This document shows positions 7,486 through 38,088 of a stretch of DNA of 59,744 bases, in pieces. The stretch is taken from NCBI RefSeq assembly GCF_003334255.1, contig NZ_QOWU01000029.1; one strand, given 5' to 3'. A program made the translations under genes and the position numbers. Every line of letters begins with the position of its first letter. Position 1 is the stretch's first letter. Below the pieces are notes generated by a model, which saw nothing but the letters and a program-made list of their open reading frames with translations, was not told where the DNA came from and did not search any database. The DNA is from Escherichia coli. Its GTDB lineage: Bacteria; Pseudomonadota; Gammaproteobacteria; Enterobacterales; Enterobacteriaceae.

Positions 7486-9023
<1,538 letters not shown>

Positions 9024-14084: not shown

Positions 14085-14100
14085 TGGCACGCAATCTGCA
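14085..14100 (+). promoter_or_regulatory. Sigma54 (-24/-12) promoter for norVW
   Basis: TGGCACgcaatcTGCA about 50 bp upstream of the norV start codon. Confidence 0.85.
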
Positions 14101-19777: not shown

Positions 19778-19925
19778 CAAATTCTCCAGCAATGACAGTT
19801 AATGCGCCGATACATTCACAAATCATGCCAGTTTTTAATTTACTGTTATTTAAGGAAATTAATTTCTGTAATGCAGGAAAAACGATGTCATCGACACTAG
19901 TGACGATGACATGTGATGACAATGT

Positions 19926-30913: not shown

Positions 30914-31521
30914 TTAGCCTCTCCACTTTGAGCCTGCTGAAACAAGGTGAGATCGCCAAAGTCCGTGTTAAAGGTCAGCTCACGCTTACGTTTGCTGACG
31001 CGGGCGATATCGGTGTTATCCACCAGATGCAGGGCTTTAGTCGGGCACATCCGCACGCAGGCCGGACCTTGTTCATCAAAGCTACAAAGGTCACATTTGA
31101 CGGCGATCGCGCGAATACCTGGCACCCAGTCAAGCAATGTGCTGACACGCGCCGGAGCAGGCGGTGCCGGTGGCGCTTTCGGGGTATTGGCGTTTGCCGG
31201 AATATCCAGCGGACGGCTGCCGGAAAATTCAATTGCGCCAAACGGGCAGGCGATGCCGCACAGCTTGCAGCTTACGCACAGGCTTTCATTCAACTGCACG
31301 GCCCCATCGACGCGGGTGATGGCGTTAACCGGGCAGACCACCGCGCAGGGTGCATCTTCACAGTGGTGACAGAGCTGCGGCGCAGATTCTTTTTCATTCA
31401 GCATCACTCTCAGGCGCGGCATTGATTGCAGGCCGTGCTGGCGATGCGTCTCTGAACAGGCGGCCTCACAAGTGTGGCAGCCGATACAGAGCGTGGAGTC
31501 AGCAATTACAAAACGATTCAC
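30910..31521 (-). CDS. hycB: Formate hydrogenlyase 4Fe-4S subunit HycB, 203 aa
   Basis: ORF track; multiple ferredoxin-type Cys motifs. Confidence 0.93.
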   Translation of the reverse strand: MNRFVIADSTLCIGCHTCEAACSETHRQHGLQSMPRLRVMLNEKESAPQLCHHCEDAPCAVVCPVNAITRVDGAVQLNESLCVSCKLCGIACPFGAIEFSGSRPLDIPANANTPKAPPAPPAPARVSTLLDWVPGIRAIAVKCDLCSFDEQGPACVRMCPTKALHLVDNTDIARVSKRKRELTFNTDFGDLTLFQQAQSGEAK

Positions 31522-31645
31522 CAGGCATTCCTCAGGTGATTGTCATTTTTGACGAAAACATGCCGATGAAATGTCATTTTCGACACTCATCGACACGCCC
31601 ATCCCCAAACAGGCGTAACGCCTGCAAAACGGGCAAAGCCTCAGC

Positions 31646-32107
31646 TCATGCTGCCGGGCTTTGTCCCTTTACCAGTTGGCTTAAATTCACCGGCACATTG
31701 TTTTCAATAGCGGTGTATAAGCTGTCGTAAACGCCAGCGATTTTTTCGAGATAGTGTTCCAGAACCTGTTCGCGATCGCGGATGTTGACCTTGCCATCAA
31801 TCATGCCGTCAATGCTCAGTTGCGCCTGCGCAATCCGCTGTTTGTCTTCGCCATCTTTTGTTTCGACGTAATACTCGATGGTGTGGCTGTTAAAGCCATC
31901 CGCCAGGGTGACGTAAATGCGAAAATGTTCAAAAAGGACGAAACAGAGTTCTTTGTCCGGCGCGCAGCTCATGGCGTGATGCAGGCGCGCTTTCGATAAC
32001 GTGATCCCCTGAACCAGCGAATTGCAGTAGATGTGCCACTGGTCCTGTAGGCGACGATGCCGCTGTGCGATGTAATCGGCTTTCTCGCTTATTTCCCAAA
32101 TAGTCAT
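31646..32107 (-). CDS. hycA: Formate hydrogenlyase regulatory protein HycA, 153 aa
   Basis: ORF track; first gene of the hyc operon, divergent from hypA. Confidence 0.92.
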   Translation of the reverse strand: MTIWEISEKADYIAQRHRRLQDQWHIYCNSLVQGITLSKARLHHAMSCAPDKELCFVLFEHFRIYVTLADGFNSHTIEYYVETKDGEDKQRIAQAQLSIDGMIDGKVNIRDREQVLEHYLEKIAGVYDSLYTAIENNVPVNLSQLVKGQSPAA

Positions 32108-32142
32108 TGTCAGGTTACCCGTTTAACAGAGATGCCAGCTTT

Positions 32143-32159
32143 AAGCATTTTTTGTGCCA
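32143..32159 (-). promoter_or_regulatory. Putative sigma54 (-24/-12) promoter for the hyc operon
   Basis: Minus strand reads tTGGCACaaaaaaTGCtt about 36 bp upstream of hycA. Confidence 0.6.
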
Positions 32160-32216
32160 ACTTTTAATTTATTGTTATTAAAGAGATTTTTAAGCTAAAG
32201 ATGAATTTCGTCGCCG

Positions 32217-32246
32217 TGTCGACGTGTCATTTCGACATCATCGACA
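32217..32246. promoter_or_regulatory. Putative FhlA upstream activating sequence between the hyc and hyp promoters
   Basis: tgtcgacgtgtcatttcgacatcatcgaca contains repeated TGTCG / CGACA inverted elements midway between the two sigma54 promoters. Confidence 0.45.
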
Positions 32247-32273
32247 TTATTCACCGCAGGGATAATCAACACT

Positions 32274-32290
32274 GGCACAATTATTGCTTG
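32274..32290 (+). promoter_or_regulatory. Putative sigma54 (-24/-12) promoter for hypABCDE-fhlA
   Basis: TGGCACaattaTTGCtt about 30 bp upstream of the hypA start. Confidence 0.65.
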
Positions 32291-32318
32291 TAGCTGGCAA
32301 TAGTTAATGGGAGGCGAT

Positions 32319-32669
32319 ATGCACGAAATAACCCTCTGCCAACGGGCACTGGAATTGATCGAACAGCAGGCCGCAAAACACGGCGCAAAACGCGTAACTG
32401 GGGTCTGGCTCAAAATTGGCGCATTTTCTTGTGTCGAAACCAGCTCTCTTGCCTTTTGTTTTGATCTGGTTTGCCGCGGCAGCGTGGCGGAAGGTTGTAA
32501 ACTGCACCTCGAAGAACAAGAGGCCGAATGCTGGTGTGAAACATGCCAACAGTATGTGACGCTACTGACCCAGCGCGTCCGCCGCTGTCCACAGTGTCAT
32601 GGTGACATGCTGCAGATTGTGGCAGACGACGGTTTACAGATTCGGCGGATAGAAATAGACCAGGAGTGA
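32319..32669 (+). CDS. hypA: Hydrogenase nickel-incorporation protein HypA, about 116 aa; the track ORF starts 12 nt upstream at 32307
   Basis: ORF track; MHEITLCQ start and C-terminal CxxC...CxxC zinc site. Confidence 0.94.
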   Translation: MHEITLCQRALELIEQQAAKHGAKRVTGVWLKIGAFSCVETSSLAFCFDLVCRGSVAEGCKLHLEEQEAECWCETCQQYVTLLTQRVRRCPQCHGDMLQIVADDGLQIRRIEIDQE

Positions 32670-32672
32670 GCG

Positions 32673-33545
32673 ATGTGTACAACATGCGGTTGCGGTGAAG
32701 GCAACCTGTATATCGAGGGTGATGAACATAACCCTCATTCCGCGTTTCGTAGCGCGCCATTTGCCCCGGCGGCACGCCCGAAGATGAAAATCACCGGCAT
32801 TAAAGCGCCTGAATTTACCCCCAGCCAGACTGAAGAAGGCGACCTGCATTACGGTCATGGCGAAGCGGGCACTCACGCACCGGGCATGAGCCAGCGTCGG
32901 ATGCTGGAAGTCGAAATTGACGTGCTGGACAAAAATAACCGTCTGGCTGAACGCAACCGCGCGCGCTTTGCTGCCCGCAAGCAACTGGTGCTCAACCTGG
33001 TTTCCAGCCCTGGTTCCGGTAAAACCACCCTGCTGACGGAAACCCTAATGCGCCTGAAAGACAGCGTTCCGTGCGCAGTTATTGAAGGCGACCAGCAAAC
33101 CGTGAACGATGCCGCACGCATTCGCGCTACCGGCACACCAGCGATTCAGGTGAACACCGGTAAAGGCTGCCATCTTGACGCACAGATGATTGCCGACGCC
33201 GCACCGCGTCTGCCACTGGACGATAACGGTATTCTGTTTATCGAAAACGTTGGCAACCTCGTATGCCCGGCCAGCTTCGATCTCGGTGAAAAACACAAAG
33301 TGGCGGTGCTTTCCGTTACCGAAGGTGAAGACAAACCGCTGAAATATCCGCATATGTTTGCCGCCGCCTCGCTGATGCTGCTCAACAAAGTTGACCTGTT
33401 GCCGTATCTCAACTTTGACGTTGAAAAGTGCATCGCCTGCGCCCGCGAAGTCAATCCAGAAATTGAAATCATCCTTATTTCCGCCACCAGCGGCGAAGGG
33501 ATGGACCAGTGGCTGAACTGGCTGGAGACACAGCGATGTGCATAG
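32673..33545 (+). CDS. hypB: Hydrogenase maturation GTPase/nickel-binding protein HypB, 290 aa
   Basis: ORF track; N-terminal [10 protein letters not shown] metal-binding motif and GSGKTT P-loop. Confidence 0.95.
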
Positions 33546-34929: not shown

Positions 34930-35936
34930 ATAATATCCAACTCGCCCACGGTAGCGGCGGCCAGGCGATGCAGCAATTAATCAACAGCCTGTTTATGGAA
35001 GCCTTTGCCAACCCGTGGCTGGCAGAGCAGGAAGATCAGGCACGTCTTGATCTGGCGCAGCTGGTAGCGGAAGGCGACCGTCTGGCGTTCTCCACCGACA
35101 GTTACGTTATTGACCCGCTGTTCTTCCCTGGCGGTAATATCGGCAAGCTGGCGATTTGCGGCACAGCCAATGACGTTGCGGTCAGTGGCGCTATTCCGCG
35201 CTATCTCTCCTGTGGCTTTATCCTCGAAGAAGGATTGCCGATGGAGACACTGAAAGCCGTAGTGACCAGCATGGCAGAAACCGCCCGCGCGGCAGGCATT
35301 GCCATCGTTACTGGCGATACTAAAGTGGTGCAGCGCGGCGCGGTAGATAAACTGTTTATCAACACCGCTGGCATGGGCGCAATTCCGGCGAATATTCACT
35401 GGGGCGCACAGACGCTAACCGCAGGCGATGTATTGCTGGTGAGCGGTACACTCGGCGACCACGGGGCGACTATCCTTAACCTGCGTGAGCAGCTGGGGCT
35501 GGATGGCGAACTGGTCAGCGACTGCGCGGTGCTGACGCCGCTTATTCAGACGCTGCGTGACATTCCCGGCGTGAAAGCGCTGCGTGATGCCACCCGTGGT
35601 GGTGTAAACGCGGTGGTTCATGAGTTCGCGGCAGCCTGCGGTTGTGGTATTGAACTTTCAGAAGCGGCACTGCCTGTTAAACCTGCCGTGCGTGGCGTTT
35701 GCGAATTGCTGGGACTGGACGCCCTGAACTTTGCCAACGAAGGCAAACTAGTAATAGCTGTTGAACGCAACGCGGCAGAGCAAGTGCTGGCAGCGTTACA
35801 TTCCCATCCACTGGGGAAAGACGCGGCGCTGATTGGTGAAGTGGTGGAACGTAAAGGTGTTCGTCTTGCCGGTCTGTATGGCGTGAAACGAACCCTCGAT
35901 TTACCACACGCCGAACCGCTTCCGCGTATATGCTAA
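34926..35936 (+). CDS. hypE: Hydrogenase maturation carbamoyl dehydratase HypE, 336 aa
   Basis: ORF track; PurM-like fold with C-terminal PRIC motif. Confidence 0.95.
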   Translation: MNNIQLAHGSGGQAMQQLINSLFMEAFANPWLAEQEDQARLDLAQLVAEGDRLAFSTDSYVIDPLFFPGGNIGKLAICGTANDVAVSGAIPRYLSCGFILEEGLPMETLKAVVTSMAETARAAGIAIVTGDTKVVQRGAVDKLFINTAGMGAIPANIHWGAQTLTAGDVLLVSGTLGDHGATILNLREQLGLDGELVSDCAVLTPLIQTLRDIPGVKALRDATRGGVNAVVHEFAAACGCGIELSEAALPVKPAVRGVCELLGLDALNFANEGKLVIAVERNAAEQVLAALHSHPLGKDAALIGEVVERKGVRLAGLYGVKRTLDLPHAEPLPRIC

Positions 35937-36009
35937 TAAAATTCTAAATCTCCTATAGTTAGTCAATGACCTTTTGCACCGCTTTGCGGTGCTTTCCTGG
36001 AAGAACAAA

Positions 36010-38088
36010 ATGTCATATACACCGATGAGTGATCTCGGACAACAAGGGTTGTTCGACATCACTCGGACACTATTGCAGCAGCCCGATCTGGCCTCGCTGT
36101 GTGAGGCTCTTTCGCAACTGGTAAAGCGTTCTGCGCTCGCCGACAACGCGGCTATTGTGTTGTGGCAAGCGCAGACTCAACGTGCGTCTTATTACGCGTC
36201 GCGTGAAAAAGACACCCCCATTAAATATGAAGACGAAACTGTTCTGGCACACGGTCCGGTACGCAGCATTTTGTCGCGCCCTGATACGCTGCATTGCAGT
36301 TACGAAGAATTTTGTGAAACCTGGCCGCAGCTGGACGCAGGTGGGCTATACCCAAAATTTGGTCACTATTGCCTGATGCCACTGGCGGCGGAAGGGCATA
36401 TTTTTGGTGGCTGTGAATTTATTCGTTATGACGATCGCCCCTGGAGCGAAAAAGAGTTCAATCGTCTGCAAACATTTACGCAGATCGTTTCTGTCGTCAC
36501 CGAACAAATCCAGAGCCGCGTCGTTAACAATGTCGACTATGAGTTGTTATGCCGGGAACGCGATAACTTCCGCATCCTGGTCGCCATCACCAACGCGGTG
36601 CTTTCCCGCCTGGATATGGACGAACTGGTCAGCGAAGTCGCCAAAGAAATCCATTACTATTTCGACATTGACGATATCAGTATCGTCTTACGCAGCCACC
36701 GTAAAAACAAACTCAACATCTACTCCACTCACTATCTTGATAAACAGCATCCCGCCCACGAACAGAGCGAAGTCGATGAAGCCGGAACCCTCACCGAACG
36801 CGTGTTCAAAAGTAAAGAGATGCTGCTGATCAATCTCCACGAGCGGGACGATTTAGCCCCCTATGAACGCATGTTGTTCGACACCTGGGGCAACCAGATT
36901 CAAACCTTGTGCCTGTTACCGCTGATGTCTGGCGACACCATGCTGGGCGTGCTGAAACTGGCGCAATGCGAAGAGAAAGTGTTTACCACTACCAATCTGA
37001 ATTTACTGCGCCAGATTGCCGAACGTGTGGCAATCGCTGTCGATAACGCCCTCGCCTATCAGGAAATCCATCGTCTGAAAGAACGGCTGGTTGATGAAAA
37101 CCTCGCCCTGACCGAGCAGCTCAACAATGTTGATAGTGAATTTGGCGAGATTATTGGCCGCAGCGAAGCCATGTACAGCGTGCTTAAACAAGTTGAAATG
37201 GTGGCGCAAAGTGACAGTACCGTGCTGATCCTCGGTGAAACTGGCACGGGTAAAGAGCTGATTGCCCGTGCGATCCATAATCTCAGTGGGCGTAATAATC
37301 GCCGCATGGTCAAAATGAACTGCGCGGCGATGCCTGCCGGATTGCTGGAAAGCGATCTGTTTGGTCATGAGCGTGGGGCTTTTACCGGTGCCAGCGCCCA
37401 GCGTATCGGTCGTTTTGAACTGGCGGATAAAAGCTCCCTGTTCCTCGACGAAGTGGGCGATATGCCACTGGAGTTACAGCCGAAGTTGCTGCGTGTATTG
37501 CAGGAACAGGAGTTTGAACGTCTCGGCAGCAACAAAATCATTCAGACGGACGTGCGTCTAATCGCCGCGACTAACCGCGATCTGAAAAAAATGGTCGCCG
37601 ACCGTGAGTTCCGTAGCGATCTCTATTACCGCCTGAACGTATTCCCGATTCACCTGCCGCCACTACGCGAGCGTCCGGAAGATATTCCGCTGCTGGCGAA
37701 AGCCTTTACCTTCAAAATTGCCCGTCGTCTGGGGCGCAATATCGACAGCATTCCTGCCGAGACGCTGCGCACCTTGAGCAACATGGAGTGGCCGGGTAAC
37801 GTACGCGAACTGGAAAACGTCATTGAGCGCGCGGTATTGCTAACACGCGGTAACGTGCTGCAGCTGTCATTGCCAGATATTGTTTTACCGGAACCTGAAA
37901 CGCCGCCTGCCGCAACGGTTGTCGCCCTGGAGGGCGAAGATGAATATCAGTTGATTGTGCGCGTGCTGAAAGAAACCAACGGCGTGGTTGCCGGGCCTAA
38001 AGGCGCTGCGCAACGTCTGGGGCTGAAACGCACGACCCTGCTGTCACGGATGAAGCGGCTGGGAATTGATAAATCGGCATTGATTTAA
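36010..38088 (+). CDS. fhlA: Formate hydrogenlyase transcriptional activator FhlA (sigma54-dependent), about 692 aa; the track ORF starts at 35974
   Basis: ORF track; GAF domains, AAA+ sigma54-interaction core ([14 protein letters not shown]) and C-terminal HTH. Confidence 0.95.
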   Translation: MSYTPMSDLGQQGLFDITRTLLQQPDLASLCEALSQLVKRSALADNAAIVLWQAQTQRASYYASREKDTPIKYEDETVLAHGPVRSILSRPDTLHCSYEEFCETWPQLDAGGLYPKFGHYCLMPLAAEGHIFGGCEFIRYDDRPWSEKEFNRLQTFTQIVSVVTEQIQSRVVNNVDYELLCRERDNFRILVAITNAVLSRLDMDELVSEVAKEIHYYFDIDDISIVLRSHRKNKLNIYSTHYLDKQHPAHEQSEVDEAGTLTERVFKSKEMLLINLHERDDLAPYERMLFDTWGNQIQTLCLLPLMSGDTMLGVLKLAQCEEKVFTTTNLNLLRQIAERVAIAVDNALAYQEIHRLKERLVDENLALTEQLNNVDSEFGEIIGRSEAMYSVLKQVEMVAQSDSTVLILGETGTGKELIARAIHNLSGRNNRRMVKMNCAAMPAGLLESDLFGHERGAFTGASAQRIGRFELADKSSLFLDEVGDMPLELQPKLLRVLQEQEFERLGSNKIIQTDVRLIAATNRDLKKMVADREFRSDLYYRLNVFPIHLPPLRERPEDIPLLAKAFTFKIARRLGRNIDSIPAETLRTLSNMEWPGNVRELENVIERAVLLTRGNVLQLSLPDIVLPEPETPPAATVVALEGEDEYQLIVRVLKETNGVVAGPKGAAQRLGLKRTTLLSRMKRLGIDKSALI

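Follow-up and report, generated by a model that had tools for sequence, protein, structure and literature searches.

Sigma-54 promoters, an IHF-like site and two FhlA-type enhancer modules in the divergent hyc-hyp control region of Escherichia coli

The divergent control region between the hyc and hyp operons is a model sigma-54 locus that has been under study since about 1990. A comparable arrangement is that of zraP and zraSR (hydHG), for which Leonhartsberger et al. (2001) reportedly proposed that one central ZraR enhancer serves divergent sigma-54 promoters.

Formate-responsive activation of hyc and hyp by FhlA has been described (PMC4591121, PMC3844500, PMC4987338), with hypA itself among the genes activated by FhlA (PMC4591121), and both hyc and hyp are also activated by IHF (PMC2636881). 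The hycA and hypA promoters correspond to the sigma-54 ChIP-seq sites OS27 and OS28, which were flagged as previously confirmed (PMC4591121). In Salmonella, the orthologous promoters are bound by sigma-54 in ChIP-chip and are sigma-54 dependent by microarray (PMC3844500). A genomic SELEX peak lies within the hycA-hypA spacer (PMC8743547). In another sigma-54 system of the same genomic neighbourhood, norR-norVW, the activator NorR uses three GT-N7-AC sites (PMC4987338). In what follows, sigma-54 occupancy, dependence on FhlA and IHF, and autoregulation are taken from published papers, and the elements, their conservation and their spacing were computed.

The hyc-hyp locus and its sigma-54 promoters

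We analysed a window of 59,744 nucleotides from an E. coli genome, by which we mean the whole stretch of DNA and not only the control region within it. Positions 31600-32700 match E. coli K-12 MG1655 at 100% identity; they occur in every one of 5426 complete E. coli genomes and are annotated there as hycA, hypA and hypB. The locus is thus the well-known control region from which hyc and hyp diverge in E. coli K-12, and a comparison with the K-12 hycA-hypA region finds the same sequence, the same sigma-54 sites and the same named regulators, with no difference. In the annotation, the hyc operon has the gene order hycIHGFEDCBA, and the wider map further includes norR-norVW, hypF-hydN and ascGFB, with ygbA and mutS after fhlA. 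Pfam domain PF11046 was found on every homologue of the hycA product. The features discussed here are collected in Table 1.

An earlier, sequence-only reading of this DNA had proposed two divergent sigma-54 promoters, one FhlA-bound enhancer serving both of them, and a positive feedback loop through fhlA. The promoters, the activator and the feedback loops, as well as IHF, are already in the literature. The locus is therefore of little discovery value in this respect and serves rather as a calibration case, in which a reader of the sequence alone arrived at both promoters and one enhancer.

Table 1. Features in and around the hyc-hyp control region (positions are counted from the first nucleotide of the window)
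Feature	Position	Strand	Remarks
norV sigma-54 promoter TGGCACGCAATCTGCA	14085-14100	+	norR-norV divergent spacer; ChIP-seq OS25
hydN-hypF sigma-54 promoter TGGCATGATTTGTGAA	19815-19830	-	-12 is GA, not GC; ChIP-seq OS26
hydN FhlA-type enhancer TGTCATCACATGTCATCGTCACTAGTGTCGATGACATCG	19883-19922		begins just past the ascG stop codon
UAS-B, FhlA-type module	31541-31596	.	hycA-hycB spacer; matrix match and conservation
UAS-B half B1 TGTCATTTTTGACGAAA	31541-31557
UAS-B half B2 TGTCATTTTCGACACTCATCGACAC	31572-31596
hycA	31646-32107	-	first hyc gene; annotated regulator (anti-activator) of FhlA
hycA-hypA spacer	32108-32318		211 bp
hyc -24/-12 element TGGCACAAAAAATGCT	32144-32159	-	exact consensus match, conservation and ChIP-seq
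IHF-like core TAACAATAAATTA	32165-32177	-	WATCAANNNNTTR with one mismatch
UAS-A, FhlA-type enhancer	32204-32246	.	matrix match and conservation
hyp -24/-12 element TGGCACAATTATTGCT	32273-32288	+	perfect consensus, conservation and ChIP-seq
hypA	32319-32669	+	first gene of hypABCDE-fhlA; annotated ATG at 32319
fhlA	36010-38088	+	formate-sensing sigma-54 activator; 73 bp past hypE, same strand

The pattern TGGCAC-N5-WTGCW has exactly two matches in the 59.7-kb window, which are the hyc and hyp elements, against 0.24 expected, and at least two matches were reached in 2 of 100 shuffled sequences. The hyp element fits TGGCAC-N5-TTGCW perfectly and the hyc element departs from it once (A for T before the GC), and both have the GG-N10-GC spacing of the two doublets. 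The promoters stand back to back, with their -24 elements 117 bp apart, and each is oriented toward its own genes. Both had been recognized in the sequence-only reading and are real, although their coordinates require small corrections: the hyp element had been placed at 32274-32290, which is off by one base, and the hyc element at 32143-32159, with a spacing given as 'N6-TGCT' that is in fact the canonical GG-N10-GC spacing written differently.

To assess conservation, we used a sample of 80 Enterobacteriaceae hycA loci, with 27 taxa (genera or species) aligned, and six wider taxa that were reached via HypA homologues. The invariant blocks among the 27 taxa are both -24/-12 elements, the core of the intergenic enhancer described below and the hypA ribosome-binding site (GGAGG, 32310-32314). 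Within the promoters, the invariant columns are AAGCA/TGCCA for hyc, and TGGCA and TATTGC for hyp. Furthermore, each promoter keeps a short distance to the gene that it drives: in nearly all loci, 38-39 nt lie between the hyc -12 element and the hycA start, and 45-49 nt between the hyp -24 element and the hypA ATG, the latter also in Serratia, Cedecea and Buttiauxella. We infer a hyc start site near 32133, approximately 26 nt before the hycA ATG at 32107, and a hyp start site near 32299, approximately 20 nt before the hypA ATG.

The two promoters also resemble each other beyond the sigma-54 elements, in that 32133-32159 and 32273-32299 form a 27-nt inverted repeat with 22 of 27 identical positions (81%) that reaches the predicted start sites (…GCTTAAAGCTGGCA / …GCTTGTAGCTGGCA). 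Beyond the -12 element this repeat is unconserved outside Escherichia and looks lineage-specific, as a coincidence or the result of gene conversion. When one mismatch is allowed in the sigma-54 pattern, the norV promoter and an intragenic motif in hycA (32023-32038, minus strand) are added. The letters of the latter encode the conserved codons W24-H-I-Y-C28, and the motif is absent from the E. coli sigma-54 ChIP-seq table, in which the only nearby entries are OS27 and OS28. Scans of the hycA-hypA spacer for sigma-70 promoters and terminators gave only chance-level matches.

FhlA-type modules on either side of hycA

We scanned the entire window with the FhlA count matrix of PMC7658346 (Table 2 of that paper). 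The two best matches in the 59.7 kb fall in the spacers on either side of hycA. The first-ranked match is 31572-31585 (TGTCGAAAATGACA, score 17.1), which belongs, together with a match at 31541-31554, to the module in the hycA-hycB spacer that we call UAS-B. The second-ranked match is 32233-32246 (TGTCGATGATGTCG, score 16.1), and belongs to the intergenic enhancer UAS-A. These ranks are partly circular, because the matrix was built from characterised sites and probably includes these ones. The third-best match (8564-8577, minus strand, TGTCGATGGTGTCA, score 14.8) is probably due to chance. An idealised FhlA consensus, the 16-mer CATTTCGTACGAAATG, is attributed to Leonhartsberger 2000 in PMC4987338; it has no match within the window at up to three mismatches, and we dropped it as a test for FhlA sites since it is too idealised. 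We also sought to rebuild the 13 sites of the matrix, in order to show that UAS-B is one of them, from the fdhF, hyf, hydN, hyc and hyp regions of E. coli. This was abandoned, as only three good 14-mers were compatible with the matrix, and those of fdhF and hydN could not be fitted without gaps.

The conserved core of UAS-A is 32221-32246 (GACGTGTCATTTCGACATCATCGACA), and the part to its left (AATTTCGTCGCCGTGTCGAC) is less conserved. This core, which reads GACrTGTCATTTCGwCA...CGACA, is invariant or nearly so across the 27 taxa; the half-site CATTTCG that it contains at 32228-34 is not rare. The sequence-only reading had singled out a string rich in TGTCG/CGACA, tgtcgacgtgtcatttcgacatcatcgaca at 32217-32246, and this position is exact. 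Judged from its letters and their conservation, the segment has the character of an FhlA-type enhancer. When 60-bp stretches are ranked by YGWCR words, that of UAS-A is first in the window, and the top four include both spacers next to hycA as well as the hydN enhancer. However, the count alone is not significant, because its 6 words lie within the range of shuffled sequences.

With respect to the predicted start sites, UAS-A spans -71 to -113 for hyc and -53 to -95 for hyp. Thus, seen from hyc, it has a placement within approximately 70-150 bp upstream and an IHF-like site in between. Seen from hyp, it falls short of such a placement, with its core centred near -64 and no bend site between core and promoter.

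The hyc promoter and UAS-A are separated by an A+T-rich stretch (32160-32200), in which the IHF-like core lies. The IHF consensus has 51 matches in the window compared to 42 expected, and the E. coli match alone is not significant. Nevertheless, a TTTTTAA-N-TTGAT block is at least 90% conserved in the 27-taxon alignment, a perfect IHF consensus is present in many genera, and 36 of the 80 loci have the strict IHF pattern at a distance of 19-20 nt from the hyc -12 C. Both this site and the second enhancer were absent from the sequence-only reading.

UAS-B lies in the 124-bp hycA-hycB spacer, such that hycA sits between this module and both promoters. It is approximately 700-760 bp upstream of the predicted hyp start, 540-590 bp downstream of the predicted hyc start and 650 bp from UAS-A. 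The cores of UAS-A and UAS-B are near-duplicates that can be written as TGTCATTT(T)CGACA(C)TCATCGACA, where the core of UAS-A is GTGTCATTT-CGACA-TCATCGACA and that of UAS-B is ATGTCATTTTCGACACTCATCGACA. In UAS-B, GTCATTTTTGACGA and TCGACA...TCG.CA are invariant in 27 of 27 taxa. Of 81 loci, 79 have the 13-mer GTCATTTTTGACG without any change, compared to 3.6% of hycA third codon positions that are invariant; the constraint on UAS-B is therefore stronger than that on UAS-A. Serratia, Cedecea, Buttiauxella, Izhakiella and Mangrovibacter retain UAS-B with one or two differences, and its half B1 is present in all six wider taxa. Both the UAS-A core and UAS-B hence show purifying selection on noncoding sequence.

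We presume that the hyp enhancer described in the literature is UAS-B, which was reportedly assigned to hyp by Schlensog et al. (1994) and Hopper et al. (1994), both in J Biol Chem, and by Leonhartsberger et al. (2000, Eur J Biochem). It is fairly probable that UAS-B has this role. The assignment did not occur in the papers covered by our text search.

In the same spacer, the hyc mRNA is predicted to fold into a hairpin directly downstream of the hycA stop codon (31600-31636, minus strand; core CAGGCG..CGCCUG, -24.7 kcal/mol, z = -2.1). The hycA-hycB spacer measures 124-146 bp in Escherichia, Salmonella, Citrobacter and Intestinirhabdus and 67-97 bp in other genera, and the additional sequence that holds the hairpin is confined to the former four.

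Enhancer spacing and the assignment of enhancers to promoters

In each of the 87 loci that we compared, the hyc -12 C and the TGTC of UAS-A are 57, 68-71 or 78-81 bp apart, whereas the distance between UAS-A and the hyp -24 element can be anything between 47 and 917 bp. The 80 core loci have a hyc distance of 57, 68-71 or 79-80 bp and a hyp distance of 47-49 or 58-60 bp. For the other taxa, the hyc and hyp distances are, respectively, 79 and 50 bp (Affinibrenneria), 78 and 62 bp (Mangrovibacter), 68 and 80 bp (Serratia), 79 and 99 bp (Izhakiella), 81 and 138 bp (Cedecea) and 80 and 917 bp (Buttiauxella). Since the hyc distance is held and the hyp distance is not, UAS-A is geometrically tied to hyc. 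The hyp promoter keeps its position relative to hypA rather than to UAS-A, and can evidently work with a remote enhancer.

The Buttiauxella locus (Logan ERR14210788, L088:1135-1836) has two genes inserted between UAS-A and the hyp promoter, which encode a DUF7480 protein of 136 aa and a protein of 95 aa without a Pfam match. Its hyp -24/-12 element is intact (TGGCATCATCCTTGCA) and lies 46 nt before the ATG, and no FhlA-like words were seen near this promoter. In Cedecea (L087:3855-3945), a G+C-rich palindromic insert of approximately 90 bp (CCCTCTCCCTGGGAGGGAGAGGG…) is located between UAS-A and the hyp promoter, and may be a small repetitive extragenic element. A different arrangement was observed in Pectobacterium betavasculorum (L085:3316-4000), which has no hycA at this place and in which hypA is divergent from a gene for an FhlA/HyfR-type activator. 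The spacer between these two genes is 685 bp long and A+T-rich. Two sigma-54-like motifs precede hypA in it, a good one (CGGCACGCGTATTGCT) at approximately 200 nt and a weaker one (TGGCATCCCGCTTAC) at approximately 40 nt.

Taken together, we consider the following model probable. Sigma-54 RNA polymerase would be held in closed complexes on the two back-to-back -24/-12 promoters, and FhlA activated by formate would bind UAS-A. A bend introduced by IHF at about 32163-32197 would then allow FhlA at UAS-A to contact the hyc promoter, roughly 90-100 bp away. The hyp promoter would not be geometrically coupled to UAS-A, and would most likely be driven mainly from UAS-B, by looping over approximately 730 bp across hycA; the same IHF site would also be on the path from UAS-B to hyp. 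It is by position, conservation and spacing that we infer which enhancer serves which promoter. In addition, two loops act on FhlA, one positive, by read-through into fhlA, and one negative, through HycA.

The positive loop has support from the literature and from the gene order. The genes hypABCDE-fhlA form one FhlA-controlled operon (PMC7658346, PMC8743547), and self-regulation of FhlA is stated in PMC7658346. We found no terminator-like site between hypE and fhlA (35800-36100). These observations agree with the proposal of the sequence-only reading that fhlA, at the end of the hyp operon, takes part in positive feedback. That reading lacked the negative loop, for which hycA is reported to encode a regulator counteracting FhlA (PMC9389701). 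With regard to an internal hyp promoter, a search for an FNR site (TTGAT-N4-ATCAA, up to two mismatches) found none inside hypA.

The most serious alternative is the one with which the sequence-only reading had explained the spacer, namely that UAS-A is one bidirectional enhancer, from which FhlA activates both hyc and hyp. UAS-A does sit between the two promoters, and the case of zraP/zraSR offers a precedent. Moreover, the separation of UAS-A and hyp in the 80 core loci falls into the two narrow classes given above despite changes in sequence; in 57 of these loci it is 47-49 bp, with the length of the spacer kept but not its sequence, so UAS-A could also matter for hyp. The distances between the two -24 elements in core loci (95, 105-106 or 115-119 bp) likewise fall into classes separated by roughly one turn of the helix. 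The core loci suggested that UAS-A is helically phased with respect to each of the promoters, but the hyp distances of 138 and 917 bp in wider taxa weaken this idea. The steps of approximately 11 bp are also not clean evidence for phasing, because they coincide with the gain or loss of a repeated half-site unit and need not reflect selection for phase.

Several further observations speak against a shared enhancer. There is more than one activator cluster, as UAS-B is a second FhlA module and is the better conserved of the two. UAS-A has an IHF-like site between itself and hyc, whose predicted start is approximately 100 bp from its core, but has no such bend site on the shorter path, of approximately 64 bp, to the predicted hyp start. 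Finally, spacing is not conserved to both promoters: beyond the core loci, hyp lies at 62, 80, 99, 138 or 917 bp and the hyc distance is unchanged. We therefore regard a single enhancer for both promoters as unlikely; the claim, which is the one point where the sequence-only reading parts from what is established for this locus, was over-extended, because the reader had looked only inside the spacer. A contribution of UAS-A to hyp is possible, but a shared enhancer is not the conserved logic of the locus.

A variation that lies between these views, and to which we give a little less credence than to the shared enhancer, is that in Escherichia-type genomes hyp may be served by two enhancers, the remote UAS-B and a UAS-A that acts at exceptionally short range, with FhlA oligomers bridging both and hycA looped between them. 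The only hint in this direction is the spacer of 47-49 bp in core Enterobacteriaceae, with its kept length and variable sequence. If this reading were true, the output of the activator gene fhlA and of the anti-activator gene hycA would be set by one three-dimensional complex.

UAS-B could also be a conserved mRNA element that acts in hycB translation or in processing of the hyc mRNA, in which case its likeness to FhlA sites would be incidental. The module is transcribed as part of hyc, with 20 nt between its end and the hycB GTG. Conservation is likewise high from B1 as far as the hycB ribosome-binding site, and the invariant sequence of UAS-B yields no covariation by which a structure could be tested. 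However, such a role is very improbable, because a near-identical 24-nt core recurs in UAS-A, upstream of both promoters, where it is not expected to be transcribed. Furthermore, UAS-B is the best match to the FhlA matrix, an Rfam scan of 31000-33000 gave no real family match, and the starts of B1 and B2 are 31 bp apart, which corresponds to about three helical turns and is typical of paired activator sites. The last alternative, that the motifs arose by chance in a spacer rich in A+T, would accommodate the YGWCR count (6 in 60 bp) and the IHF match, each of which is within the shuffle range, but is refuted to the point of being negligible by conservation and ChIP data, since two exact sigma-54 matches (0.24 expected) lie in correct orientation in one 211-bp spacer, blocks are invariant in 27 taxa while the adjoining spacer and the hycA third codon positions vary, and sigma-54 occupancy is published.

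Returning to the assignment of UAS-A with IHF to hyc and of UAS-B mainly to hyp, the part that we did not find in the literature searched is the contrast between a quantised, IHF-bridged hyc distance and a hyp distance of 47-917 bp, which is a modest addition to what has been described. This result bears on the question of how enhancers keep promoter specificity in tight divergent regions.

Comparison with related sigma-54 systems

Words like those of UAS-A and UAS-B also make up the upstream regions of hydN, fdhF and hyfA. In the window, the enhancer words of hydN are centred approximately 98 bp upstream of the predicted start, with an A+T-rich stretch before the -24/-12 element, and the enhancers of fdhF and hyf are approximately 85-130 bp upstream. 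The hyc side of the locus has the same layout as these three genes, with clusters of TGTC, GACA and CGTCA words approximately 85-130 bp upstream of the -24/-12 element. The hyp promoter, on the other hand, has no enhancer at that distance, as UAS-A is approximately 64 bp and UAS-B approximately 730 bp away.

Among divergent systems, norR-norVW resembles hyc-hyp in that a sigma-54 promoter lies in a divergent spacer, which in the case of norR adjoins the activator gene; it differs in that only norV is sigma-54 dependent. The similarity to zraP/zraSR goes further, since both systems have divergent sigma-54 promoters in one spacer, with the Salmonella motifs 168 bp apart (PMC3844500), and in both the activator gene is part of one of the two operons, which leads to autoregulation. 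Unlike zraP/zraSR, however, hyc-hyp has a second enhancer, and its intergenic enhancer is asymmetric and appears to be coupled through IHF to one promoter only.
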